NCBI GenBank assembly: GCA_036172245.1
Contig: JAYWIR010000005.1
Span: forward strand, 3,720,001 to 3,784,000
Direction of reading: 5' to 3'
Origin: Raillietiella orientalis
Taxonomy: Eukaryota
Length of the DNA: 64,000 nt
The position numbers were made by a program, and so were the translations under genes. Under the pieces are notes generated by a model. That model worked only from the letters and a program-made list of their open reading frames with translations. It was not told the DNA's origin and did not search any database. Positions 30,501-60,481 of the stretch are shown here, one piece after another (positions within the stretch are counted from its first letter, which is position 1; the number at the start of each line of letters is the position of its first letter).

Positions 30501-33500
30501 GGATATGTCATTCTTTCAGCTATTAGTAGAATCGATTTAAGAATCCAATCAATCCCGTGTTCCATCTTTGCGTTTTCTTGTGTTTTCGTCCCTGTCCACT
30601 GCACTGCTTCCCGAATGAAAGCATGCTGTTAATCAAGTGTTCATTTAGACTAAAGCAGGCATTGCCTATCAGCATAATCAGTGGATGCTTATGATGACAG
30701 CGAGAGAAAGCTCTCGCATGGTTTAGAGGCATACTGGTAGTGACAGGGGAAAAAAAGGCAAGAAACCTTCGATGAGTTGGTGTATCTCTAAAGAAATAAA
30801 TCCTGATGGCAACACGGTCAGGATCGTTTTTTTATGGAAGCAAATGTACAGTGTTTGAATAGATCTTTGAAAACGTCCACCAACTACAAAATGGAGGAAG
30901 CAGTTTTTTTTTTTTGGCAAAGTCCAAAACGATAAACGAAACGCATAGGTCAAGTTTAATACGTTTTCTGATAACCGTGCATGATTATTGGCACCCCTGA
31001 AGACCTGTAAAATTTGTGACATAAACTGAGCAGCAGATGTTATGCTTATATATATATATATAATGTACTTTTAGAATAGTCACACATAGTGCTTTGCTTA
31101 GCATTTTTAAGCAAATGTCAGCATAAGATAATGAAATTCTAGGATTCCAAGTTAGAATTACAGAAAACTCCTGAACTGGTGAATCTGGCTGTTTGCAAAT
31201 GTTTTCAGAGAGCACCAGCTCGGGCTGGTTACCATGGCACAAATAACGAGATTGACGATTATAAACAATCAGCCGGATTAGCAGCAGGATCCGAAGATTG
31301 AAATCCAAGTTGATAGCAGCAATCCGTGGAACATCAAATCAGACTTTCCCTGTTTCTCCGATCTTCAAAAGTAGTGAAATGACGCATCCGCCATTTGGCC
31401 GCTTTGTTTCTTAGTCACACTGGCCTATTAAAGTTTGAAGAATTAAAGGATAAAGTTAAGGAAATCGCATGTGATGCTTTGAGAACACGCTTCGCAAGTG
31501 GCCTAGAGTATTTTTTATTATTATTATTATTATGAGGTAATGTGCAGTTAAATACATGCGTCAGATTATTATGCAGATAGGAAGAAGCGATTACGTAGTA
31601 TTAAGTAGAAAATACGAAAGCTTGAATTTTTTTTGTAATTAAACTGTGAAACAGCTCTATGATGAAACTGCAGTTTCAGGCAAACAAGAGGGCACTTTTC
31701 CTGAAGTACTTCAGAATCGGTTTCACGTCCGAGAAGTGAATCTGATAGGATCCTTCAAAACTTCGGATTTCGGCCCCAAATCAGATCAGGTCGTTATATC
31801 GAAACGCTCTGTACCGAACGGTGGTCAAAACGTGCTGTTTTCACAACCCGACTTGTTTGCCCCTTCAAGTGCCCATAGTCTGGAGCCTGAAGTGATCGAA
31901 TCAAAACCTGAATCTACCTCCGTAACCAACAGCACTCCAGCATTCTATGAAGAAAACATCAGTAGTTCCAACCGAAAAGGAAGAAGCGATGCTGATGCAA
32001 TTATATCTAACATAGTTAAACTTCTAGGAGCGAACGTCAAGTTAACAGGTGCCACCCGCACTACTACCTCATCACCTGTTCGTTCATCAGTGATTCCCAC
32101 CCAGACTAATAATCGAGGTCCACTTTCCCCGTTGGAGCCTTCTCATTTTCCAGAACCGCCTCACGATACATTAGCAACTTTTCTGCCTCCGGGACTCGTA
32201 AATAACCCCAATCGTCCAATAGAACATCCTCTGCCGATACCCATTCCTCGTCCTCGTCCTCCTCCTCCTCCTCCTCCAGTGCAATATCACGGACATGTAC
32301 GCTTCCCAGATGAAAAAAACCCTATTAGAGATTATGTGGAACCATCTTTCCATGAGAATCTTCATTTTGTGTTTCCTACAGCCATTCCATTACCAGTCCC
32401 TTTGATACCAGACCCATTCACAGCTAGTTATGGAAACAGTGGGAATTTGCATCCTCTAGCCGACGTGTTTTTAGACCAAGCTTTCCTCAATTCGTTATCG
32501 ACTACTGGAGACGATTTTACCATTTACAACGCATCCTCATCGGAAGGATCAGCACCTTCTGATTCCATTCGAACCCTCAAAGTTTCGCGGCTTTCGGTGA
32601 CGCGCGAAAATCCTGCTCTGGAAACAGCTGCCAGTATCAATCAGCATGATTTCGTTGCGCAGGCCTCTACCTCAGATCTCTTGCAAAAGCCCTCCTCGGC
32701 CAACTACATAAATGACACCTCTGTGGACCTCTTTGTCCCCGATTCTAATAGTGAGACGACTGTTGCGACAGACTCGACATTCCCTCATAGTGCATTTGGT
32801 GATGAAAATTCTCCATCAGAAACAGTTTTGCAATCCGCAAGTCTTTCCCTGTCCGGCTCTGCGTCATTGAGGCCGTCAATTGTCTTGAAACCAAATGGTA
32901 TTCAATCCTATAGCGAAGCAATCCAGGAGTCCAGTATAGCGAGTTTTCCTCAAGACGTAATAACAAACGTGTTGCACTCTAGCACGCATGTGTTTGGTCA
33001 GACTCCGATCATCAAACCCACTACTTCTGTTTCGAGAACATCAGCAAGTCCTTCATCGGAACATCCTTTCATTACGGGTCAAGTGTTCATCGCCGATGCA
33101 TATCCGTTCGACGATGTGTTTGATGTCACTGTCAAAGCTCATCACGGATTCGGAGAAGCCGCGGAGCCTGCCGCAGAAGAAGGATACCAGCAAAAGCAAC
33201 CAATCATCACGTCACCTATTTCGGAAGATCAGTACGTGTACATCGACGGGCAGAAAACGTACATTCAGCTGACGCCTGCTGACTACAACTCCGTCAAGCA
33301 AACGGTCGGAGCGGACTTTATATCCAAGAGCGCCAGCGAGATCAGTGCAACGAGCACAGTAGTGAGTCCGCAAAGGCACCATCCCATTAAAAAAGTGACG
33401 CAGGCTCCAATCATACGCGCCCCTCCCAAGACAACAACACCCTTTCATGTCAAGCAGAACGGGCCCATAGTCAGGTAAGCTGGAATTCTCGGTGGCCGTC

Positions 33501-39263: not shown

Positions 39264-42195
39264 ATGGATGATAGTTCATGGGTAACGGCCACATGGAACC
39301 CAATTGGAGACAGTTTTTACAGGTAGTGATGGAAATGTTTATTTACTTAGCATATTTTGTAGGAAATTCGAGCTTTACAATATGGAAGAATGGGGAAATA
39401 TCATAGGATATACTCCATCGGTGATAGCTGCTGCATCATGGGGTGGCCTAATTGCTGTGATCAGAAATTTGCATGCTTTAACCAAACCTGACATTTTACT
39501 GTTTACATCTAGTGGAAGATATCAAGCTAGCATTAAAGTAATAATGATTATCAAAGTCACTTTAGCCCATTTGTACCTCTCCAGTGGTCTTCTGGACATC
39601 TGCTAGCTTTGGGATGGTCAAATAAGGAATGTTTGCTTTGCATCCAAGATGATGGCTGCATCTTGTTCTACGATCTTTTTGGAAGATTTCAACAATCTAC
39701 AAATATGGGTCAGGTAGAGTTACGGAATGTAGACTGGAATTGAATGCTATTTTATGACAGGAGGCAAGAGATCTCAAGCTATTAGAAGCAAGAGTATTTG
39801 TCGATGATTTGAGAACGGGAGTAGCCGCTTTGACATCTACTTTGAGATTTCTGGTGCTTACGAATGTTGAAGAGCCTCGCAGTGCCTTTCGTTTAGTGGA
39901 AGTTCCTGGTATGTGAAAAATTCCTGTATTCATTCTATTTATGAAAGGATTTGTTGTAGGACTGACCATTTGTCCAAAGTGGGAAATCTTGTCTCATAGG
40001 CATTCAACAAAAGTGCTCCTAGTTCACCATGATCAGCTACTCCTTGTAAATCAGACTGAAATTGTGTCCCCTACCAAAAATACAGATTTCAGTCGGGAAA
40101 GCATTGCCTTGCTCAGCTGTAGCAGAAATTTTCAGTGTTTAGCCATTTTATATACAAGTGGCAATTTATGGCTGGGTACTTCTGATTTTTCACAGGAATA
40201 TACTTGTGTACAAGTTTCACTAAAATCAACTTCACAAGTGATGATGGCATGGTGTACAACTGATGCAGTTGCATTGAGTTTAGGAGATCAACTCCATGTT
40301 ATTTCCTCTCAAGGAGATTCTCTGATGTATCCTTTTTTGCTATTTTCGCTGTTTAAAAAGGTCCCTAACTGTTTATAGATACACCTGTAATGTAATTTTA
40401 CAGTTGATACCAGAGATAGATGGAATCCGTGTACTCAGTTTGAAATCTCATGAATTCCTACAAAAAGTACCTGAAGCATGTGTAGATGTGTTTAGGATTG
40501 GATCCATGCATCCTGGAGCTATCTTATTAGAAGCATGCAAACAGGCTAATTTGAATAGCCACAAGACAGATGAATATTTGAGAACTATTGATGCACAACT
40601 ACCAGAAGCAATCACTCAATGTGTTCAGGCAGCAGGCCATGAATGGAGGCCTTCAGTGCAACATTTATTACTGCATTCTGCCTTTTTGGGACGGGGATTT
40701 GCTCCCCATTGGGATTCTGTTCCTTTCACAGAAATGGTATTGGCATTAAGAGTTTTGAATTGCATTCGTAGACCTGAGGTGGGACTTCCATTGACATTGC
40801 AGCAGTAAGTCTTGAAATAATTCGCATATGCTAGGATGTAACATTTAAATAGATGTCAAGAGATGACATATCCTGTGCTACTAGATCGATTAGTGAGGCA
40901 TCATCATTTTGAGTTAGCAGTACACATAGCAGATTACTTGAGAATCCCTAAAGAGAAAGGTTCAAGCAGCATATTAGTCAAATGGGCTTGCTATAAGGTG
41001 GGATGACAGGTCATTTGTTTTTTGCAAGTTGTTTGTAAGCAGATTAAGCAGTTGCAGACAGATGATGAACAGCTGGCTGATGAGATCTACATTAGACTTG
41101 GCCAAGCACCAGGAATTCATTACAGCCACATTGCCCACCAGGCCTTCAAAAAGAATTATTCTCAATTAGCATTGCATTTATTGGAATTTGAAAAATGTGC
41201 ATCTGAACAGATTCCACTCCTCTTGAAGTTGGGAGAATACAGTGCTGCCTTAGATAAGGCTGTAAACAGTGGAGACAGCAATTTGGTGTACATGGTATTG
41301 CTGTTTCTTCGAGAAAAAATGCAATTGTCAACAATTCAAATGGCTATACGAGCATTTCCTTTGGCTCAGACACTTCACTTGCAGCAGTTGCGACTTCAGG
41401 GTAGATGGGAGCTACTTTATGACATTTATGGACAAGAAGATGACTTTGAGCATCAGGCAGAATGCCGGCTGAGAGAAGCCTTCTCTACAACACAAATGGA
41501 TGCTCGATTGACTGCATTAGCTGAAGCTCGACAGTGTTATCAACAAGGGCATCATGATCTATGGGCAGCTCTTACAGAGGAGCAACTGCAATTATTACGG
41601 AGGCAGCTTGTTTTAGAAAAGCGGATTGGTTCTCCTTTGCGAGGGCTATCTGTGCACCAAACCCTGCACAAGCTTTTAGCAAAGGATGATTTGCAAGCAG
41701 CTGAAAAATTACAGCAAGACTTGAAAGTACCTGAGAAACACTGGTGGTGGTTGCGTATCCATACTTTGGCAGAATGTGCACAGTGGACAGAACTGGAGAA
41801 GCTATCTCATGGAAAGAAATCACCTATTGGTTTTGAGGTGAATAGATAAAAGAAAAAAAAAAAAGGCAAATCTCCAAAGGTAGTTTTCTTCAGCCATTTG
41901 TAGATGTCTGCCTGGAATTTGGTCACAGGAATGAAGCTAAGAAATACTTGACTCGTGTTCCCAACGTTAGCAGAGTGAAATATTTCGTTCATTTGGGGTC
42001 AGTGATACTATTGGTACTCAAAAATCTATATAGTTATGTTATAGCATGCTTGAGGAAGCAGCTGCACTCATTGCTGCTCAGAAAGATGATCAAGCTCTGC
42101 AGCATGTTGTAATTCGTTGTAGCCCACACTATCAAGAACTTCTGTCTAGGGTAACTGTTTTAAGAGCTTCTCGTCATCAGTACTCCAAAAAATGA
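39264..42195 (+). CDS. VPS16: Vacuolar protein sorting 16 (HOPS/CORVET subunit)
   Basis: TATWNPIGDSFYRKFELY, PEIDGIRV, VFRIGSMHPGAILLEA, CVQAAGHE, LRVLNCIR, KVPEKHWWWLRI, KKSPIGFEPF. Multi-exon with short GT-AG introns; TGA at 42193-42195. Confidence 0.96.
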
Positions 42196-42307
42196 ATGCA
42201 TATCATGTATATTGGCATAAATTTAGTGAGCATTACTGCTGACAATTTGCAGAATCCTCCAATTGCACTCACGACTAGAATACAGCCGTTTATCACTATG
42301 AATCAAA

Positions 42308-47140: not shown

Positions 47141-48250
47141 GCATCGATTGAAGACACACAACTCGGAAGATGAATGGCATGGAACCAAAACCGGAAATTT
47201 GATGTCCAACCTGAAATGAGTCTATCTTCATTGTGAGGAATCCATAAATAGAAAGCAACAAACCACGGAAAAGCTCAAGAGTCTCGTACATTCGAGAATT
47301 ACAAGCATCACATCTAGCAGAAGGTGTATTCGAGGGAAAATTGTGTACCTCCGCACTGAGCGATCCCAATTGAAAATGGGGCCTTGCGCTTACGAAACAG
47401 GAAAACCAAAATGGGTTTTGCTGGAGACAATTTGCTAAAGACCATGATCCAACGTCCACGTAAAAAAAAAAAAAAATTCAAAAGCAGCACCATCAATACA
47501 ACATTAGGTGGTTGGAAAAGGACTAGAAATCAACGAATGCAGATTTCCGAAGAGAAACAGAATCCGCGCCAATGGACTGGGCCCACAGAAAGTGATGCCG
47601 AGAATCGTGGACGTTGTTTACGACTGGTATGCCGTGAAGCTTTTTCCGGATACCAAGTTAAAAATGAGAACCCCTCCAAACGTCCATCGAGCACTCAAGC
47701 AGATTGGATCGTTGGGACTAAAGAAATGAATTCCATGTACGGAATAAAAATGAGCGGCAAGAGCTCATTAAATTTCGGTGCCTCGCAAAAAAGCAGATCC
47801 TTTCGCTCATTGCGAATTCAACCTAATCCTGCAAGCCGTTTCGCACCTTATTTTTTGCTGCTATTGTGATGCTGCACTGCTAAAATCAACTTGGATAGCA
47901 GCTGAAACGTAACTCAGTACCACGGCTGAGCCTCTAAACTGCACCCTGCCAAAGACCTACATGACTGTGTGAATGCGCTTTTGATAACAAGCTCCACCAA
48001 CGCCAGTGCCTTTTTTACGATCGTAGAAGCGTGATCGAAATTGGATGATCTCATGTCCCTGTAAGAGAAGAGGTGAAAGTTTCGCTTGGAGTCAAGAAGA
48101 TTTAAAAGAACTCGATGTCTATCGTTCATCATTCGCGCATGTACGCACTTGGTGCGGTAAAGTGCATCTCTTCCTTCGCCATCCTGCGGACCGAAGAGAC
48201 AATTATACATTACTGTTCTCGTTCATTCCATGAACACTGTTGCTCATAAT
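47140..48250 (-). mobile_element. Heavily degraded 3' part of a Utopia/NeSL-like element
   Basis: CLFGPQDGEG..VLLNLLDSK resembles the post-RT LYG..GG..FKLLxSxD block. Weak later matches (RSNLL, YVDV, LGSL) occur in the expected order. Confidence 0.3.
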
Positions 48251-49428
48251 GCTTACTTCTTGAAAATATCTTTTCAGGAAGATAATCAATGTGGAGCACG
48301 CAAATAATCATTATCTTTAATCTCGACCCGATTTTGAAAAACGCACAAGTTAGCAAACTTTCTCATACCCAGTTCGAAGCTGGCAGCATCCTGACCGATA
48401 TAGGGAGCAGCAGTAGAAACGTCCAAGACTACCGAACCCCAACTCCCGCACAAAGAGGACGTGATAGCGTACCAACACCAAGGACTTTAAAGGTAGCCAA
48501 TTCGTTTTATTGAAGCACGGAACAAGCGGCCGTTCGCGTTCAACCCCTGCAAACACCCGATGCATGCGTTTCGGTAGACGAACACTTGCGACGGCCCCCG
48601 TGCTGTCCGAACAAGGAACCGGAAAACAGCATCCGTTCTGCCAGCATGCAGAGAGTCGCAAACTCATCCCATCTTCCGCGAGGCGCCTGCCGAAGCGGGT
48701 GCTCATCGCTCCACCGAAGCTGCGTCCTCGACAAACCATTTCCGACGATGATACCACCGTGCAGCCAACGGACGTGCGATCGACACGCCATCCACCCTCC
48801 GGCAACCTGCGCCCGTCCAGCCGGCCCGTCGCGGGACCTCCCGGAACGCGGACCGCGGCGAGGGCGCAAACAACCGAAGCGGCACCGGGGCGCGCCACTT
48901 TGGTGCACTTCGGCGTGCTGCTGCTGCTGCTCTCTGCAAATCCGCTGCTACCCATCCGTCGAAAAGAAGGCAGATTCGCAGAAAGATCTCCATCGAGGAG
49001 CGAAGTCGCGGAAAGATGCGAGGAAACCGCGCGCCTCCACATCCGTCGGAAAAAGTGAGCGCAATCGGCAGCAAGGAAACGACCAACACTGGCACTCTTG
49101 ACAGCAGTCCCATCCCGCGCAGTGGTTCTTACGCATCTTCAGGAGCGCCGGCAAGAGTTGCGCTTCCGAGTCGCTTCGTTCCCGTTCCGCGTTTTCCCCC
49201 TTTTTTGACCCTTGTCAGCAGATCGCCCGGTTGCCATTTCGATTCCTTTCCAAGCCCACCAAGCTCGTCGGGAGGGCTGCAGGTGAGCGAACCCTCCTCG
49301 GCTTTCTACGGACAGCTCAAGTTCCGCTTTCACCGAACCCGCTTAAAGGCCTTTCCCCACGTGGGAAGCCAGCCAGGCACCGGAACGTCCAACCAGGGAC
49401 AAAGTCCGGGAAGTCGATTCTTGGCGGG

Positions 49429-49448
49429 GCGGCGGCGGCGGCGGCGGC

Positions 49449-49490
<42 letters not shown>
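49429..49490 (+). repeat. Compound trinucleotide microsatellite (GCG)n(CAG)n
   Basis: gcggcggcg.. followed directly by cagcagcag.. in the sequence. Confidence 0.95.
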
Positions 49491-49491
<1 letters not shown>

Positions 49492-49780
49492 GGGATGGCG
49501 AAAACCGAAAGTACCGAACTTGGGAGCGGGAACTTTGCGAGGAAAAACGCCGTTTTCGGAAAACCGGAAGTCCCGGATAGCCGCCAAAGGATGCGACTGC
49601 CAGACTTCAAGCAACAAGCAGTTTATTGACTGGACTTTACGATGGCCAACAGGATCAGCTCCTCAGTCGTGGAAAAAACACCTCACCCATCCGCAATCTG
49701 CCGGAGATTCGCAAGCCGAGAGTGCAGATCACGAAGCTCATCTTCTCAAGCTACACGAGGCTGCATTCGGGGAATGCGCA

Positions 49781-52314
49781 TCACACGGGCGGCCGAAGAT
49801 CCAGATGTTCGTAAACCTTCTCCACCAGATCATCTTTCCGCAATTTCGACACGGGAATTCCAACGCCGCTCAGATAAGTTTTCAACACTTCCACAGTCAG
49901 CTTATGCACCTGAGGCAATTCCGGGTGAAACTGGGACAAACCTGGCAAACCATTTTACCCTTCCCATTTCAGCTTCCAGCTGCATGTCCACGTGGAGAAC
50001 CTTGCTTTGCTTCGGAGTCGACGACGTTTCCGGATGCGCTCGTTTCGCCACCGCGCCAGCACCCCATCCGTCGGGTAGAGTGCACTCCAGGAATTTCTGC
50101 AATGCGTCACTGGCTACTTGCAACCGCTGCGTGCAAGCTGAACGCGAAGGGTGCACAGTTGCTCAAGTGAAAACGCGCTACTCACCCAGAGGGTCCTCGA
50201 ACGGTTCCACTTCAACACGGTCTAAAGCCAGTGCCTCGACGTTGCGCCAGTGGATCTGAATGACGGGATTAGGGAAGTCCTCGCTTTTGAAGGGGAACGT
50301 GAGACGGGAAACGAGTTCCGTTGCTGCCTGCACCTGGTCCACAGCAGGAACCTGCACGCTCCCAGAGCCGGTAATCTTGCGGACGTCTTCGGCAAAAGGC
50401 AGGCAAATCATGTGGAAACCACAAGGAACGAGGGTGCTGGGTCCGGAGCAGGAGGCTTGTGCTTCCGACTGAGGCACAAGTGCTACCAATCTGGGGCCAA
50501 CATAGCGCCTGGGCACCCACCACGCCACCCCCAGCACGGCCTTGCGCAAACAGGCATCCAATAAAGCTCGAAACACGGTGGAACTTCCTGACCATTTTGC
50601 TTTGGGAACGCAAACCCTTTCAGCACTACCTGCAATCAGCTTATCGTCTGGGTACAGAAACGATGCAGGTCGCACGTGGTAATGCAGCTTGAGATGGCTT
50701 AGCGGTTTGAAACCAACTAACCGGATGGAAACTCCACCGAAATCCCGCATCTGGCGCACTTCCTCCTGCGCAGAAAACACAATCAAAGCGACACCCTAGA
50801 CCTCTTCACCCCGTGGCACGTGCAAAGCTTGCAAGATGCACAAGGCCAGGAAAGAGGAACATGGACAGAAGAAGAAGAACGGTGAGAGCGCAGCCGCACG
50901 CAGAGTTCTCACCGCAGAGAAACAGATTTTCCTTCCACCATGCTCCTGGTACCTTGTCAGATCAGCAGGCAGCAGCACCTCACCTGTTTTCTGGGTAACA
51001 AAACAGCCATCTTGCCTTGTCAGAGAGAAAAAGGCACCGTACCCCGTGAAACATCTTCTGGACCACCTTCACTTCCTCATTCGTTTGCTTGTTCAGGTTG
51101 ATTTTCCACGGGCGCGGTAGGGGTCTGTCCACACAAGCCAGCAAGCAAAATGGTCTTCCCTCTGCTTGCCCATTCCGTTGGCTGGCTCACCTGATCAGAT
51201 TGTGCAAGGACACGCCACATTTGAGATCCCCAGCAACGCTCAGCACAGCCGCACCACTGCTGCTGATCTTGTAATTCTTGCGCCAAACCCAACTCAACAT
51301 GTCCTCCCAACTGCCTGAACCGGGAAGCGGTTGCTCTGGATCAAGAAGATCCTGCAAAAAAAAGGGGGGGAAACCAGGTTGCTGCTCGATCCCACTGACG
51401 CAGCACTCCAGCACCTTGTAAAACTTCTGGAAATCGAACGTGGCTCCCAAAGGGATGACCTCCAGTTGAATTCCGGAATCACGGATGTCTTGGCCCTTCT
51501 GCCTGGCCAAGCGCTGCCACTGCACATCTTCCGGATGAGGATCATCGTTGCAAGTAAACAGCAGTATACGTTGGGAAGCCAGATGCCCTCTGCGCACCAC
51601 CTGGATCTTCTCCACCGCCCACTCCTTTCACTCCCCTCCCTCCCCATCCCCCCTTCTTCCTTACCCGTTCTTGAACATTCCCATGCAAATCCACAGGGCG
51701 TCGCTGAACGAGTACTCGTCGCAACACCCATGCTGCCAAGGAGATCCTTCCGATCCGCACGCTGCTGCTGCTGCTGCACACACAGTCGCCAATCCACAGG
51801 GAACACACACACACGGCCTACCTTGAATCGCTCCTTCCCAAAGCCTTGATGTGCGATGCCGAAGGGGGTTCCAAACCTTGGAAATATCGTTATGTGCGGG
51901 GGGAACTCCAAAAGTTGCTCGTCGTTTCCCTGTTCCGATCAACACCACACCTATCAGATCCCTATCGTCGCTGATTATTTTCCTGCGTAAGGTGCTGTAG
52001 GTGCACTGGTGGAGACAAAAGAAAGAAAAAGAAAAAACGAGAGAGAGAGAGAGAGCGAAAAAGAAGAAAACAAAAAAGAAAACACCCCACCAACCCAAAG
52101 CAGCCGCGACGCGCGCAATGAGCTCTCTCGCGCGCGCGGCTACCTGCACAGCCATCTGCACGAAACTTGGGGAAGGAGGCGCGGCGCAAGAGTCGTGCAT
52201 TTTCCTCGTGCAGTCTATTGCAAATATCAAGGCATCCTTCCCTCGCTTGAAGAAAACAGCTTCCGCACCTTCTTCTTCCTCTTCCTCGTCGCACAGAACG
52301 ATTTAGTCCTTCAT
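49781..52314 (-). CDS. XRCC6: Ku70 (vWA, Ku core, SAP domain); assembled sequence has an early stop and three compensating 1-bp insertions
   Basis: KDALIFAIDC, IISDDRDLIGVV, YSFSDALWIC, RILLFTCNDDPH, LVGFKPL..HVRPASFLYPDD, PRLVALVPQ, GFHMICLPFAEDVR, FPNPVIQIHWRNVEALAL, and SAP domain KLTVEVLKTYL..LRKDDLVEKV. TGA at 49781; AATAAA on the minus strand at ~49622. Confidence 0.92.
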
Positions 52315-54493
52315 GACGAACTGCCGACAATACACAACCAGCACCGCGCTCGTCACACTGCTGGCCGTGGCAGGCGAGCAGCCGCCGAGCGCGCCAGCGC
52401 GCCAAGAGACGCGCGTTCCCTCTGCGCGGACGAACAACCCGCGTGGCGACCGCACAACCCGGCCCCAGGGTTACCGCCGCGAAAACGCCCGAAAGGCAAG
52501 AGGAAGTAAGATGTGCGTGCGTGCGCACGCTCCAAGGGAACCCCGTCTCCGCACTTCCGCAACACGTCTGCCGTCAGCTGATCCGCGAAACGCTCAGCGA
52601 CGTTCGCGCTGAAAGGAAGCAGGCCGCTTGCTTTCGCTCCCGCTTTCCCGGAAGAAGAAAGGCGCAGGAGTCGCTTCGGAAACCAGCAGCTCTCGAAGCC
52701 GCAGACGACGCTGCCCTTGCGGCAGCGACCGCTCGCCGCCGTGGGAAGCGCTCCAGGCACCGCAGGGCGTCTGCACCGCGGCGCTTCGCCGCCTCTCTTG
52801 CGAGAAACGCAGCAAAGCCTGCTTTTTCCGAATTCCGCCTTCCCTTCATCGAGCAGCGCGCCCACCACCGTAACGAAGTACGATCGAGCGTCCCCAGCAG
52901 CAGACCACTCTTCCGTTCGAGGGTGCGGTGGTAGCGCCTCCGCATCCGCCATGCGCAGGAGGCGGCGGCGCTGGCGCACCCTGCCGACTCAGCCCACAAC
53001 TCCGTGGTGGACGGCGCCCGTGAGCGACCATCCGGGATGATCCTGGATGGCGTCGTTTCGACGTGCGGCAGAATTTCGTTTCCGCTGCACTGGGTGTTCG
53101 CTCGCGGCGCGAGAGTCAACCCGAGATGCACCGCGATCGGGTGTCAAACTCGGGAGTGCCCATTTTTACATGCACCGCGACGAGATCGCGGGCCGTCCCA
53201 AAGCCTGGCAGCAAACGGATGCGTGCCACCGTGGGTCGGCGAGCGGGAAAGGATCCCTTGGCCTCCCGCTTTCCGGATCGCGCTCGTCCTCGGCCAACGG
53301 CGCGGGAACCTCCGCGATCCGGGGGACGGGACTTTTTCGTTCTTGGTGAATTCGTAGGGACCACGGCACGTAGCTGGCGGACTTCCTTGCAACGCAGCAA
53401 GGAGCGATCCCTGCACGCTGGGGTCACCAGCCGGGCAGTGCGAGGATGGCCAGTGCCGAACGCGAACGCAGAACGGCGTAGCCGGGTCGGTCGGCATGGG
53501 GAGCGCGTTGCGCACGGCAACAGCAGCAAGTGCGCCGCGCTCCAGGAAAGAGGACTCGCGCAGCTGGACGTGGTCGCCATGCAAACGCGACCGTCGCGAT
53601 CGTCGTGCGGCCCGCTCGGTGGGAGCCAAGCGCGCCCGTTTCCTTTCGCGCACATCCGGGTGCCTCCCGCCCGGATATCCCCGAGGTGGGGGGTGTCCCA
53701 GATGATCTTGGTCCGGCCGGACCGGAACTCTGCGCCTTCCTCTCTGGAGAGTTGCGAGTGAGAGGAGGCCACGAGCGTCCGGCAGGCTGCGCGCGCTTCC
53801 AGGCCGTTTCCCCTCTCCGAGAGCGACCGCCGCTGCAGACTCTTCGGGACGGGTGCCGGGGAAGGAAGCTGGGACGGTCGCTAGGAGGCGACAGCAAGCC
53901 CCCGGCACCACTCTTCGCAGGAAGCACCGTAGGAGGAAATCCCTCGTCCGGCAACGCGCGGAGCGGACGAGAAGGCGGAGGAACCCATGCGCCCCCTTCC
54001 TCCCTCCTGGCACGTCTTCGATCAGGGGAGGAGAGGGAAGAGAGCCCCCAGGGTTCTCCCCAACTCGACGCTTCTTACCCCCCGAGTTCCCACTTGGCGG
54101 CGGCGGCGGCGGCGGCTGCATGAGCGGTTCGCGAAAGCACCGCGCGCCGCCCGCAGGGTGGTGTTTCCTTCCGCGTGTCGTCACCGAGCCCGCCGTCCTT
54201 TTCCGCCAGGAGCTGCGCGCGAAGCGGCGGTTGAGGGCGCGTTCACGTTTCCGCACCTGCCGACTGCGGCGCACCGTTTCGTGCGACGAGGGAAGCGCGC
54301 GCGCCTCTCCAGGACAAGTGCTGCCCGGTTGGCGTGCGCCAAGCCGCCCTGCGCCACCCCTTCCGGCTCGCGAAAACCGGGAAGGCAAACCCGCGCTCGC
54401 GAACGCGCCCCCACCCTCCCACCCCCCTCCACCGCGCACCGCGTGCGTTTCAAGATGAGACTTTATTTCTGTCCGCCAGGGTGCTCACGTCGC

Positions 54494-55547
54494 TCACGCC
54501 GCCTCGTAGGACATGCAGAGGGCATCCCAACTTCCTTGGAATTTCGTGCCGTTCACGAACAGGAACAGACGGATGGGCTGTCCCGGGTATTCGTACTGGA
54601 CGACGTGGTCCCCCGTGGTCCAGCGTGGCCGGCCCGCGGCACGTCTTCGGGGTGCTCGGCGCAGGCATGCCCACCGGGAAGCTGCTGGTGACGAGCATCT
54701 CTCCGGATTCCAGCTTCAGGCCTCGGAAAGTCACGTACAGGGAGCCTTTCTCCCCGCCCTGATCGCAAACTCGCGGTGAGACGGGGCAGGGCTGCAGCGG
54801 CGGCTCACCAAGATGCGGACTTCGCCGAAGAGGGGACTTCCGGGCGATTCGGGCATCTGCGGCTGGGGGATCTCGGTCCAGGTGCTCGGAGCCATCAGCC
54901 CGGATTCTAAGTCCTTGTAGGTCATGGTCATGGTCATCTTGGCGTTCTCGATCTTGATCACCAAGGGAGGGATCAGCGGCAGGTAGCCGGAGAAGCCTGA
55001 GGAGTACCTGCCCCGCGAAGAAAAAGAGACCTCCGTATAGGGCGCCGGGCAGAGAAGGGGGTAAGGAAGGGGGGGCGCTCGCGGAAAGGCGGCGCCAACC
55101 CGCTCGAGGCACTCACGTCTGCACGTGGTATCCGTCGCTCACGTCCATGCTTCCCGACTCGATGCTCGCGACCTGGGCGACGATGTGCCCGACCTTGGTG
55201 CTGATCTCTCCGCCCAGCTACGCAGGTTGGCCCGTGGCGTGCCGAGCTCTGCACCACCTCGTCCCGGCCCTACCTTAGACGTCACTTCGCAGCTCGATCC
55301 ATCGGCTTTGACTTCGTACTGCGATCCTTCCAGCTCCTTCCCGCAAGACGAGGACAAGGCGGATCTCTGGACTGGGAAGAATGGGGGCACGGCCAAGACC
55401 TGCAACGGGAACGAAGCAAGGAAGGAAGGAAGGGAGGCAGGGAGGGAGGAGGAGGAGGGAACGGGCGTGCAGGTTGGGCGCTCATCCTCCTTGAAGACTC
55501 ACCATGCAGCAGGAGGCTGAGACGAGCAGCAGTGAGGCGGCCAGCAT
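54494..55547 (-). CDS. Predicted secreted protein of ~218 aa, family not recognised
   Basis: Six phase-compatible GT-AG exons: 55547-55503, 55399-55274, 55217-55117, 55007-54809, 54758-54675, 54595-54494. Signal-peptide-like MLAASLLLVSASCCMVLA, GC3-rich codons, and AATAAA about 26 nt after the TGA. Confidence 0.75.
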
Positions 55548-57843
55548 CTTCGGATCTGAGAGGGAACCCTTGCTATGGGATGCGTACCGCTCCAGGACCT
55601 CCATTTATTGCGACCCGGAGCGTGTTTGCGCTGCCGCCTCATCAGGGAGCCACCGGCTGTTGCCGCGCGCTTGATGAGCGCCCGCGCGCAAACAGCGGCC
55701 AGATTTTGCCGTGTTTGCGCTCCCGCGGGAGTCTTCATTAGGGGGGGAGACGTTCCTTTTCTTCGCGTGGGCGCCCTGGAAATCAGGCGATGCGCGCCCC
55801 TTTCCCCTCCCTACCGTCCTACCTGCTGCTGCCCGGGACGTCCGCCGTGTTTGCTCCTTCTCGGTAGGCCCAATTAACGCCGCCCCCTCTCGGTGAGCGC
55901 GCGCTGCCCCCTCCTCCTTGCCGCTCGCCCTTCGCCGTCGCCCCCCTTCGCTGGTTGCGCGCAGACGTCGGACGGCGCCTTCCCCTGCAGATGACAGACA
56001 GACGACCGGGGGGTGGGGGGATGGAAGGGAGGCAAAGGGGGCGCGGGCACCGCCTTGAGCCCGCACCCGCGCACGGCGCGCCAGGACGACTCCTGCATGC
56101 GCGCCCCCTTCCCGCGGGCTGAAGGTCCAGGGAAGTCACCGAGGCTGGCGGGAGTTCCCTCACTGCCCCATCACCCACGCAGGCGGTATCGGTCCGCTAA
56201 GAAGGGTCCACCGCGCTCGGTTCCGCACCCCCTTCCGCTCTCCCCTCCTCCTTCCCTCTCTCCCTGGTTCCTTTGGCAGCGCCGCGTGCGTGTCCCGCGG
56301 CGCGCACGCCGCCTGGCCAGCCGTTCCTCCTGGATCCCGAGGTGCGGCGGAGGCCGCCCCGCTGACCCGTTGCCGGGATCGCGCCAGGAGGCCCCTACCT
56401 CTCTCTCACCCTTCGCTGCCGCGGAGAGTCCTTCGCCGGGCAAAGGACTCAGAAAACCAGCAGCCACAGGTTCCGGGAGCATCCCGGAGTCCGGGCGTCG
56501 TTGACTTCCTCTCGCGCCGTCTCTTCCGTGGGTACGCGGCCTCGCGCCCATTGCTCCTTCCACAAGAGCACGGCCTTGTAGAATAATGGGCAGGAAGCGA
56601 CGATGGGCTTCCAGCCGACTTGGCTTGCTCAGCTCCCGACTTGCCGGGAGTTTCCGCTGCCGCGCCCGGAACGGATCGCCGCATTCGTTCTGCCGTCCCG
56701 ACGACTTTCCCTGATCGCTTCCCGTCGACGTCGCCAGCTTCCGTTCGCTTCGCGGCCTACGTCTTCGTCCACTGCGCCCCCTTCCAACCTCAGCATCCCC
56801 CCTGGTTCCTCTCGCCAGGAGCTTGCAGAAGAGGGCTTGAGAACGTGCCGAAGAATTGGAGTTCCGGGCTGCAGGGATGCTGCTTACGACGTGTCGACGG
56901 AAGCGTTGGCGAGGGAGCCTTCCGATCGGGATTCGACCGGTTTCCTCGCGTGTTCAATTCCTTTGCTGCGCCATTCCGCCCCACGAATCGAATGCGGACC
57001 GAAGCGCGGAAAGCAAGGTCGCCCCCATCGGGTCGCAACTTTGCCATGAGGTAATAGGGCGGGACTCGTGCGTAAGATTTCTACGGAACTTGCTTCCGTG
57101 AGTTTCGTCGAGGAGGAGCACTTCAATCGGGATTGCAGGCGCTCCTGCTTTTCCAGCAAACGGAATCCCTGGCCTGCACGCGGGCACGGGAAAAGGACGT
57201 CCTCCGAGGTGATTCGATCGCGATGGGGGCGAAGTGGAAGGGGGAAAGAGAAAGAAACCACGGGCAGGGGAAGCAACGACCTTAGCCAGGTTTCCTGCGC
57301 CCCAAAAAAACGAGCGACCGAGACCGCGGTACTCCCATCTAACGAGCTCCCCAACCCCAACGCTGCGGTCGCACGTCCTGTCACAGAGCCTACGATGCTC
57401 ACTAGGCACTGCAGGATCGCTCACCACCATCTCTCTGATCAACTAATCCGGGTGAGCTTCCCGGTGACAGGAATCTCAAGTGCTGCAGAATGGTCTGAAG
57501 GTACTTGCACCCGCCATGAGGCTTTGAGCAACTTAAGCTCGAACACCGGGATGTCTTTTGATCCGTTGACAACACGGTGCAATCAGCATCGTCTCGTTTG
57601 GTGCCAGACAGAAAAAGTTCCAACGTGCCAAAAGTAGGAGAAGCAGAGCAGCGACATCAAGAAAATCCCCAGCCAACAACTCCCAAACACTGGAAACTTA
57701 AACGTGTTTTATTCATTCTCTTCTTGAACCTCGCAACTGGGCAGTCCTCATGAGGGCAGTCAGCAACTCACCAGCAACTGCTGGAACATGCAAGTCGCTG
57801 CAAACAGCCTTGGGCAGTTACTCACAAACAGGCACGGATGCAA

Positions 57844-59380
57844 TCATTCGACGCGACTGCCTACGCGATCTCGAGGAATCAGCCTCAGTTCGGAACCATG
57901 TTTTAGGAAAATGGTGCCAGCATCCAACGAAGGATTGATGCCCATGCCATCATTGGTTATGATGGCAGATGTAGCAGCAGGCATGTGGAACTGCTCAGCC
58001 GCAAACTGGAGCACTGCGGTGAAGGGAGTGGATTCTGGAACTGAAAACCTGAAATGAAGATAAACCACCATTTGCATAGTTGTCCACTAACTGGTGCAAA
58101 TAACCAAGAGCAATAGCATGCAACTCTTGCCACGTGTGATCTACTGCTCTCTCAAGAATTTCCTCTACAACAACGGAACGAAACTGTTTGATGACAAGTA
58201 ATTCATCGACCCAAGCCAACAGTTCCAGCAATGGTAAATCTTTTTGTTGTAAGATATTCCACCACAGGCCGCGTACTTGCGAGGAAGAAGAGAGTAGCTG
58301 GGTGCGCACCTGCTTGTCGAGGGAACTCATCAAAAGCCAGGCCTTCTCTGTGCATCTCATCAGGGCAAAAATTGCATTCCACAAATTGGTATTGAGATGC
58401 TGATCTTTCAGCAGCATATTGCATAAGACAGCAAAGCCTGCTTGAGTACTAAAAAGTTCTTCAGGATGCTTCAGGTCCCACGTATCTTTGTCAGGAACGG
58501 CCAAATAAGAAGACAGGAGCTCTGCGGCTATTGCATACATCACTTTTGCAGGACAAACACCTTCTATCAGTTCTTGCAAACTACGTAGAAGCTGCCCGCA
58601 ATCGGCAGATTCATCCATCCATGACAGGTGAGAATGCACTTTCATCACAAATTCAGAGGAAAGGCATGGATTGCACAGGAAGAAATGGGCCAGCACATTT
58701 TCGAAATTATGAAAAAATTCCAACTCCAGTGTCAATCCAGGCAAGTAGTTCAATTCCTTATTCGAGCATTTTGGGATGGATGAGCTTCCCATTTGCTCGT
58801 CAACAGATCTGGCCCAAAGAAACGCCTTGTTGATGTCATCCATTGACCATTTGGGCATCCTGAAAGCTTTAATCAGTACATCACTAAGAAAATAATCAAT
58901 GTCCTTATTGCTGGCTTCCATTCTGGCATTTCTAATGTATCACTTTTGAACTCATCATTGATTTGAACTAGGCTTCTTATCAGATATTTTTTGTTCTTAT
59001 CACTATACGTGTTTCTTAATAATGCACGGAAATCAGAGTACAATGAAGTACTTGAACTTACACTTTGTATGGTAGATTGGGATCAGATGTCAAAGTTATC
59101 TTAAATGTCACCTTAGCCCTAAACAAATTAATAAAATTGACAAATATCCAACATGAAATCAAATGAAAAAATAATGCGTTGATTGATTTTGTGCATAATA
59201 ATTTCAAACTTCATTCAAAAAAAGAAGTGATATAAGTTAATCTGCTTTTCTACAATTATACACAACACGGCCTTGCAAGTTGATTTACTGAATAATAATA
59301 AAAAAAAATCTGACGCATCATTTTGGTTTATCATTGTTGTAAGATAATTTAAAGAGAATGTAATGTGGAGTAACTCACAT
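57844..59380 (-). CDS. UFM1: Ubiquitin-fold modifier 1
   Basis: The ATG is split as AT(59380-59379)|G. Exon 59118-59062 encodes [19 protein letters not shown] and exon 58048-57844 encodes [60 protein letters not shown] on the minus strand at ~57707. Confidence 0.96.
57995..58921 (-). CDS. FANCF: Intronless 308-aa FANCF-like protein nested in UFM1 intron 2
   Basis: [25 protein letters not shown] resembles the FANCF N-terminus [42 protein letters not shown] resembles VPGL..VLLSLRLLENRAL. The rest is Leu-rich and helical; vertebrate FANCF is also intronless. Confidence 0.65.
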
Positions 59381-60481
59381 TATTGGGGCTCTGGAACAGT
59401 GATCATACGGCACACTGCACTTGTTTTAAAAATAATCAGCTGCATTAGAAATCCTACAATGCAAAGTAGAACGATTCACAAGAATTATCAGATTGCCAGA
59501 AACTAACTAGGATTTGTAGGCCCCCTCCCTCCAAAATAACCCAACATTCGCATACTGTAATTAGGAAGCAGTGATTAACTGAGACTAAATTTTGCACAAT
59601 AATCGAGGCAAAATGCACTACAAGTTTTGTAATCGCACACGCTCGAACCCCAAAACATCAGCAACATCCAAATCACCAGTCAACACAGCAACAGGATTGC
59701 CTCACTAGAATTCGAGTGACATGGGAAATACTAATTCAGCAAGATAGGAGGTGCTACTTTTGCGGAAACACGCACATCTATTCCAAAAAGATTCAAAATA
59801 TGATAAGCATCCGTGAAATCCCTGCGTCAATACATTTCTCTTGTACACTGTCTCACTTCTCTCTTCAATACCTTGTACCTTTCTATTTTTTCCGATTTAT
59901 TCTTTGAGAACTAAATCGGTTAAACACCTATAACGTTTGCATTTGCAATTCTTGAAGATTCATATGCAAACTCATGGATGTTGTTGGAACCGAGAACTAT
60001 TCAGCTATCGATATGTTATATAACTCATAAACTAACTCATCTCATCAATGCTAACTTTTCTATGGAGTTTCGATGAAAGATCGGCATAGTTCCTTATTCA
60101 TCTCTTCAATCAGTTGCCGAAGGCGCATTTGTCTTAGTTCTCGAACTTCGTTTGCAAGCGTACAATCCATGGGTGCGGATTTAGATTCTCGAGGAACACT
60201 GCCTGTGAAATGCAACTTCTAGTTTGGAAAACATGCTCAACAAGCCAGCAAATCTCCAAGGAAATGTGATAACATGAAATCGGTAAATAAATAGATGTAC
60301 AATGCAAAACAAAATTAACTCTTGAAACCATGATTCATCAGCATAAAAGATGAACTCCAATCATGCGTTAGAAGGCGATGTCGATACCTTTGCATTTCCA
60401 CTTGTTTCTCTATTTGCTGTGGTGCAGCAGGATGTAATTTCATTTTTCATTAGCTTAGCGATTCTTCTATGGAGGAGAGTA

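Follow-up and report, generated by a model that had tools for sequence, protein, structure and literature searches.

The locus described here raises two questions, namely which protein is encoded by a long open reading frame (ORF) lying within an intron of the gene for ubiquitin-fold modifier 1 (UFM1), and how that protein and UFM1 could both be obtained from one gene region. The locus lies in a 64,000-nucleotide (nt) stretch of contig JAYWIR010000005.1 of Raillietiella orientalis, referred to here as the window; all coordinates are positions in the window, and all features of UFM1 and the nested ORF lie on the minus strand. An earlier note on this DNA had described the ORF as FANCF-like, had assigned it to one transcription unit with UFM1, and had proposed that 3' splice-site choice or intron retention switches the output between the two proteins. 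In the Fanconi-anaemia core complex, FANCF serves as the adaptor subunit and belongs to the FANCC-FANCE-FANCF module. The reading that we favour on balance, judging from the sequence, is that the ORF is a diverged FANCF gene in a conserved nest in UFM1 intron 2 and that it may be expressed through retention of this intron.

The UFM1 gene of the window was read from the sequence as a three-exon gene on the minus strand. Exons 1 and 2 joined encode a 20-residue N-terminal peptide, and the translation of exon 3 matches the Pfam family Ufm1 (expectation value, E, 8.1e-26; profile positions 19-75 of 75). The UFM1 start codon has a strong context, and the frame read from exon 2 into intron 2 closes immediately (..PYKV and a stop). 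The features of the host gene are as follows.

59379..59380, minus strand: end of UFM1 exon 1, comprising the AT of the start codon, which is split AT/G at 59379
59378-59373, minus strand: GTGAGT donor of UFM1 exon 1
59119..59378, minus strand: UFM1 intron 1, 260 nt, with GT at 59378-59377 and AG at 59120-59119
59062..59118, minus strand: UFM1 exon 2, 57 nt, ending in phase 2 (..AAA GT) and followed by a GTAAGT donor
58049..59061, minus strand: UFM1 intron 2, 1013 nt, with AG at 58050-58049
57844..58048, minus strand: coding part of UFM1 exon 3, with the stop codon at 57844-57846
57708..57713, minus strand: AATAAA polyadenylation signal, the sole canonical signal downstream of both stop codons

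Intron 2 is approximately 20 times as long as the introns of the neighbouring Vps16 gene (40-53 nt in 6/6 introns read), and an intron of 1 kb is exceptional in this genome. Its length is due to the ORF inside it. As the earlier note had claimed, this ORF, termed P0001, has 308 codons, is intronless, fills intron 2 and lies on the same strand as UFM1. It is a complete same-strand ORF in a host intron, except that its last 54 nt extend into host exon 3. The following features of the nested ORF are used below.

57995..58921, minus strand: P0001, the 308-codon intronless ORF from ATG to stop, a probable highly diverged FANCF orthologue
58922..59061, minus strand: spacer between the exon 2 donor and the P0001 ATG, 140 nt
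57995..58048, minus strand: overlap of P0001 with UFM1 exon 3, 54 nt, equal to 17 codons and the stop
58804..58894, minus strand: conserved N-terminal block, residues 10-40, found by BLASTP, by hhalign and with the hidden Markov model (HMM) of the L040 cluster described below

From stop to stop, P0001 measures 314 codons (57995-58939), its frame closing 6 codons upstream of the ATG, and in the overlap its frame is one base off that of UFM1. The ATG lies in a strong context (gccagaATGG; position -3 is A and position +4 is G). The spacer contains three upstream ATGs, at 58958, 58955 and 58929, one of which stands 8 nt before the P0001 ATG and out of frame with it. When the intron was shuffled 2000 times, the length of the longest ORF had a mean of 83 codons and a maximum of 205, compared with the 314 codons observed. 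The GC content of P0001 is 44% (0.51, 0.35 and 0.47 at the first, second and third codon positions) versus 27-37% in the intron flanks. Because the ORF is longer than the shuffle maximum, has a higher GC content than its flanks and has survived in a genome with 40-53-nt introns, P0001 is a real gene and not a chance frame. A codon-usage test gave log-odds of 0.107 for frame 1 and 0.145 for frame 3, with a null of -0.249 +/- 0.064; the Vps16 exons used for training contained 5 stops. An antisense gene was considered as the cause of the ORF and rejected, the plus-strand frames across P0001 being at most 126 codons long and apparently non-coding when judged by eye. The single-sequence AlphaFold models were all-helical, with a predicted local distance difference test (pLDDT) score of 49.6 for the whole of P0001 and 59.2 for residues 110-308.

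The evidence for the identity of P0001 is indirect and came from UFM1 loci of other lineages. UFM1 loci were drawn from metagenome contigs with the exon 3 peptide; 301 relatives were confirmed and the best 80 were used. A script locating the N-terminal exon placed it directly against exon 3 in 44 of these loci and apart from it in 13, and did not find it in 23. Among the 13 separated loci, 11 had gaps of 84-202 nt, whereas the remaining two, L040 and L068, had long introns that hold an ORF on the same strand. In L040, the UFM1 intron measures 1140 nt and the ORF 333 codons, with its ATG 55 nt past the donor; in L068, the intron measures approximately 1328 nt and the ORF 318 codons, with its ATG 68 nt past the donor. 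In the window and in both of these loci, the ORF thus shares the strand of UFM1 and occupies intron 2 behind the same phase-2 donor, from which its ATG is 55-140 nt away. The nest was present in 2/80 loci, or in 2/13 of those with an intron at that position, and a profile of the L040 and L068 ORFs found no further copy among the 3659 ORFs of the 80 loci. The UFM1 loci nearest to that of the window (L001, L002 and L004; 72-86% identity) are contigs of about 2 kb in which the N-terminal exon abuts exon 3 some 100-175 nt from the contig start, with about 1.7 kb of sequence after it.

The results revealed that these syntenic ORFs belong to FANCF. The Pfam family FANCF (PF11107) matched 12/12 members of the 90%-identity clusters of the L040 and L068 ORFs at E<=0.01, with a best value of 2.3e-8, and the alignments ran nearly from end to end; in one of them, residues 21-305 were paired with profile positions 19-311 of 346. 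Eight of the 12 attained the curated 24-bit cut-off, comprising 5/5 members of the L040 cluster (25.2-34.0 bits) and 3/7 members of the L068 cluster (20.3-26.5 bits). The cluster of the L068 ORF contains a sequence identical to it, and the named members of this cluster are attine-ant proteins (Trachymyrmex, Mycetomoellerius, Acromyrmex and Atta); L068 is therefore referred to as the ant locus. The L040 and ant proteins can be aligned with each other in their N-terminal halves only (E 2e-4). Besides the lineage of the window, at least two further animal lineages, including the attine ants, have thus conserved the nest, and the pairing of the two genes is old.

RefSeq lists the ant proteins as "uncharacterized protein" (e.g., LOC108760680, 318 residues). 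Three longer ant models of 371-392 residues (KYN20502.1, KYQ52339.1 and KYM76776.1) are named "Ubiquitin-fold modifier 1", and Pfam finds both FANCF and Ufm1 in them. The long models in the L068 cluster (P0054, P0058 and P0059) consist of the FANCF-like ORF joined to UFM1 exon 3. Because the join point differs from species to species, these fused models are likely artefacts of prediction or annotation that hide both genes.

P0001 is linked to the FANCF-positive ORFs by a short block near its N-terminus. When P0001 was compared with the 80 loci by tblastn, the sole match at E<0.1 was in L040 (E 0.033), and it lay on the strand of UFM1, approximately 1 kb upstream of exon 3. BLASTP aligned residues 10-38 of P0001 with residues 13-41 of the L040 ORF (E 1e-4), a Smith-Waterman comparison of the two gave a z of 5.2 with 0/500 shuffles reaching the score, and hhalign of P0001 against the alignment of the 12 cluster sequences covered residues 6-41 (E 0.0022, with a probability of 12.9%). 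The HMM of the L040 cluster ranked P0001 first among the 1359 ORFs of the window (six-frame, 30 residues or more), with E 0.008 compared with 0.28 for the runner-up, and the reciprocal phmmer search against the 3659 locus ORFs ranked the L040 ORF first (E 0.11). The shared block, to which the earlier note had already drawn attention, has the form W-x4-[IVA]-x2-[AS]-F-x-W-A-R and lies at a similar distance from the N-terminus in both proteins; in L040, it falls within the region aligned to PF11107, which starts at profile position 19. The ATG and the N-terminal residues of P0001 align with the start of the syntenic ORFs. Human FANCF presumably carries a similar block at the same N-terminal distance.

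The weak sequence evidence combines with an identical and very specific genomic address, and orthology is for this reason the best reading. On the basis of the N-terminal block and the genomic position, P0001 is very probably a highly diverged FANCF orthologue, and we file it in the FANCF family provisionally, given that it is connected to the family by transitive homology and by position, whereas P0001 itself falls short of a match at the curated 24 bits.

Several results weigh against this identification. The Pfam search by which the earlier note had proposed to check it did not return FANCF (PF11107) at E<=10 with either the whole of P0001 or six fragments. Sequence searches of the PDB by phmmer came back empty for the whole of P0001 and for its N-terminal pieces of 110 and 35 residues, and the FANCF chains there were also missed by profile searches with A1 and A2 and by phmmer with the single sequence P0062. 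The mixed profile of ant and L040 sequences (A2) also ranked P0001 first among the window ORFs, but with an E of 0.35. Beyond approximately residue 45, the comparison of P0001 with L040 gave a shuffle-like score (z -0.4), so that the similarity covers just 30-40 N-terminal residues, and no pairwise similarity was found between P0001 and the ant protein. In a wide fold search with the whole model (pLDDT 49.6), the C-terminal domain of human FANCF, 2iqc_A, ranked 13th of 48,161 chains, with 144/173 residues aligned at a root-mean-square deviation of 4.9 and 17% identity; with the C-terminal model (pLDDT 59.2), 2iqc_A was not in the best 50. The respective Z values, 6.6 for 2iqc_A and 5.6 at rank 50, both fall in the band that the tool states to be noise for helical repeats. 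The FANCF fold result is thus one that does not reproduce between two low-confidence models.

The remaining direct searches were empty or unspecific. A word-indexed search of 5.8 billion proteins returned 1601 candidates, none of which matched P0001 even at E<=10, and none of the metagenome loci was found when P0001 itself was the query. Foldseek gave 0 matches to the P0001 model at E<=0.001, and a second fold comparison placed no FANCF in the best 50 of 977 chains. Among the candidates rejected were sub-threshold Pfam matches of P0001 to PLAC9, CPL and DUF4056, which were taken as noise, and the one match of a full HMMER search of 1.84 billion representatives (E 8.2e-4), an internally repetitive protein of 429 residues that was judged spurious. 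A language-model atlas related P0001 to generic helical nuclear scaffold proteins (Med23 at 0.91, INTS2 and NELF-B), ranked FANCC ninth for the whole of P0001 and second for residues 1-130, and had no FANCF cluster among the matches listed (30 hits). We attribute the empty searches to the lineage of the window, which is poorly sampled and fast-evolving: the best relatives of its Vps16 are 41-45% identical, and a quick Vps16 tree placed it outside insects (support 95) and cladocerans on a long branch of 1.09.

These negative results could instead mean that P0001 is a lineage-specific orphan helical protein or a chance open frame with a coincidental N-terminal likeness to FANCF. The absence of a direct profile, sequence or reproducible fold match speaks for this reading, which could also draw on the alignment of just about 35 residues, on the atlas matches to generic scaffolds and on the codon-usage test, which did not single out the P0001 frame. 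It is set against the fact that the ORF of the window ranked highest by a FANCF-positive profile is the very ORF whose intron, strand and offset agree with those of the L040 and L068 ORFs, with the aligned block at an equal distance from the N-terminus and with an ORF length greater than in all 2000 shuffles. We consider this alternative very improbable. The FANCF identity given in the earlier note is supported indirectly, by the syntenic ORFs and the shared block, and remains without a Pfam or PDB match for P0001 itself. The synteny check proposed in that note showed a FANCF-positive ORF on the UFM1 strand in intron 2 of both L040 and the attine-ant locus.

The second question concerns how a FANCF gene in this position could be expressed. 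Between the P0001 stop and the UFM1 signal, neither AATAAA nor ATTAAA occurs, and along the minus strand from 59500 to 57300 the only signals of the polyadenylation type are an ATTAAA at 58873, in the 5' part of the ORF, and the AATAAA at 57713. Because the ORF stops in exon 3 and has no signal of its own, a FANCF mRNA of the window would have to keep intron 2 unspliced and to end at the UFM1 polyadenylation site. The two messages presumably share their 3' end, and this is the part of the proposed single transcription unit that the anatomy of the locus bears out.

We propose the following scheme as the most likely one. Within this compact genome, intron 2 has shrunk around the nested gene, and each primary transcript would have two fates. 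Removal of intron 2 would yield the UFM1 mRNA; if intron 2 were kept, the UFM1 frame would stop after exon 2, leaving a 20-codon upstream ORF, and FANCF would be translated from its own ATG. The FANCF-coding RNA would start either at the UFM1 promoter or at an internal site near exon 2. Reinitiation after a short upstream ORF is known from dicistronic mRNAs of animals. In all three loci, the exon 2 frame stops at the TAA of the GTAAGT donor, and a retained-intron RNA would carry an upstream ORF of 20-21 codons, followed 55-140 nt later by the FANCF ATG. For L040 and the ant locus, whose spacers contain no ATG, retention from the UFM1 promoter is the simplest explanation. In the window, the three spacer ATGs and the strong context of the UFM1 ATG speak against retention from the UFM1 promoter, and the ant locus speaks against a universally shared 3' end, since its gap of 303 nt between the ORF and exon 3 contains three polyadenylation signals, whereas the 83-nt gap of L040 contains none. 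Retention from a shared UFM1 promoter is, in our judgement of these features, a serious candidate that falls somewhat short of an even chance. A broader proposal, that arthropods have conserved FANCF in UFM1 intron 2 since ancient times and that one pre-mRNA couples the supplies of both proteins through a choice between splicing and retention, is put forward tentatively and appears rather unlikely at present.

One alternative keeps the nest and gives FANCF a promoter of its own. Under this explanation, transcription would start internally, whether in the spacer, in intron 1 or in exon 2, and continue to the UFM1 polyadenylation site, so that the two genes would have DNA and a 3' end in common but no promoter. 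Animals commonly have nested genes that lie on the strand of their host and use a promoter of their own; in RefSeq, the ant ORF (318 residues) has a locus entry separate from UFM1; and a start site downstream of the three spacer ATGs would fit the window best. At 140 nt in the window, 55 nt in L040 and 68 nt in the ant locus, the spacers are very short and offer little room for promoter and 5' UTR sequence outside UFM1 exon 2, and comparison of the three by eye showed no conserved motif; a separate polyadenylation signal is absent in 2/3 loci. An internal promoter appears possible, though on the unlikely side.

The other alternative is the switch proposed in the earlier note, in which exon 2 would be spliced to a proximal AG (58932 or 58923), yielding a fusion of UFM1 residues 1-20 with the FANCF-like protein, and 3' splice-site choice would decide the output. 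The observation behind it is correct: both AGs (58933-58932 and 58924-58923) are in frame with the exon 2 donor and stop-free up to the ATG, with linkers VNAR and V. The resulting introns of 130-139 nt would be nearer the usual size in this genome than 1013 nt, splicing to 58923 would drop all three upstream ATGs, and L040 also has one in-frame AG. The spacer contains 10 AGs, of which 3 are in frame and 2 of those stop-free; because one AG in three is expected in frame by chance and two AGs 9 nt apart share a frame, the in-frame AGs are unremarkable alone. Moreover, each candidate acceptor has 8/20 pyrimidines compared with 11-15/20 in 8/8 accepted acceptors, an AG is in frame in 0/1 cases in the ant locus, and the 1/3 in L040 is one of three overlapping AGs that cover all phases. 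The P0001 frame closes 6 codons before a strong ATG that has been kept, and it is this ATG and the N-terminus behind it that align with the start of the syntenic ORFs. An N-terminal extension may also be harmful, since human FANCF requires its first 15 residues to bind FANCC-FANCE according to a review, PMC3364535, which also describes binding of FANCF to FANCG and to the MM1 region of FANCM. Given the weak acceptors and the ant locus, the proposed switch is not supported, and the fusion is regarded as improbable.

The probable FANCF gene lies beside a second DNA-repair gene, a Ku70/Ku80 gene at 50178-52302 (Ku beta-barrel E 1.6e-23, Ku_C 3.4e-6 and Ku_N 6.6e-8), which is also on the minus strand and follows UFM1/FANCF approximately 6 kb downstream. 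Opposite the presumed 5' region of UFM1 lies a plus-strand frame (59575-59907) with a match to Hyccin (E 7.7e-4) that is probably spurious, being low-complexity and scoring 19.1 bits against a cut-off of 25. The Vps16 gene occupies 39300-42200 on the plus strand (Vps16_C E 1.3e-62), with the introns of 40-53 nt mentioned above. From 48000 to 57500, the GC content is 60-72%, compared with approximately 43% otherwise; each of the six frames of this block is open over long stretches, and GGC/GCA microsatellites occur at 49423-49490. Besides the Ku exons, no Pfam match was found in the 20 frames scanned in the block, and ribosomal DNA was rejected as its source, with 0 Rfam hits in the whole window. 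For a 611-codon frame on the plus strand (31643-33478), Pfam gave no match and the codon-usage score did not exceed that of its other frames; either an orphan exon or a frame without constraint could account for it.

The FANCF of the window is invisible to sequence searches and was recognised solely by its position inside UFM1. Synteny can therefore detect orthologues that escape profile searches, and lineages can be re-scored with it for whether they possess the Fanconi-anaemia core. If the broader proposal above is true, UFM1 would serve as an anchor that exposes hyper-diverged FANCF, and with it the FANCC-FANCE-FANCF module, in lineages scored as lacking it. PMC11061109 describes a depleted Fanconi-anaemia repertoire in arthropods, and PMC10085685 reports FANCC, FANCE and FANCF by PSI-BLAST in Hymenoptera and not in Diptera or Lepidoptera. 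The nest has been kept between the ants and a lineage that the quick Vps16 tree, with its long branch, places outside insects and cladocerans. Because it has been kept across lineages and is squeezed here until it overlaps a UFM1 coding exon, the pair suggests two genes that are hard to separate or useful together. The locus also offers a testable case of one intron that would decide between two unrelated proteins. Judged by titles and abstract openings, the literature on UFM1 with a nested gene or intron, or on UFM1 with FANCF, was not found to describe this arrangement.

Compared with known FANCF proteins, P0001 shows the family likeness in its N-terminal block, its length (308 versus 318-333 residues), its predicted all-helical structure and its single exon. 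It differs in that neither the profile nor any solved FANCF chain matches it directly, whereas the L040 and ant ORFs match the profile almost end to end, and in having its 17 C-terminal residues encoded by UFM1 exon 3 in another frame. Vertebrate FANCF is also a single-exon gene; to our knowledge, it is free-standing and not linked to UFM1. The attine-ant models show the same nest, the ORF sharing the strand of UFM1 and lying in its intron 2, and the long models with both domains indicate that annotation pipelines treat the pair as one unit. The ant locus differs in that its ORF ends 303 nt before exon 3 with polyadenylation signals in between; none of its models is annotated as FANCF, and the order of the two parts in the fused models is opposite to that in the fusion of the earlier note.

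Among nested and promoter-sharing genes more generally, the host/nested gene pairs of PMC11694760 and the CPNE1-RBM12 promoter-sharing pair of PMC2568002 resemble the present locus in that a complete coding gene lies in the intron of another and the outputs compete in transcription or splicing. The present locus differs in that the ORF of the window overlaps a coding exon of its host and has no polyadenylation signal of its own, and the pairing has been kept across distant lineages. With dicistronic mRNAs that use reinitiation, an RNA of any of the three loci that kept intron 2 would share a short upstream ORF, the UFM1 N-terminus, ahead of FANCF; the window differs in having three further ATGs between the two ORFs. 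Nested genes and dicistronic messages are thus already known, and P0001, taken as FANCF, is an extreme new member of a known family.

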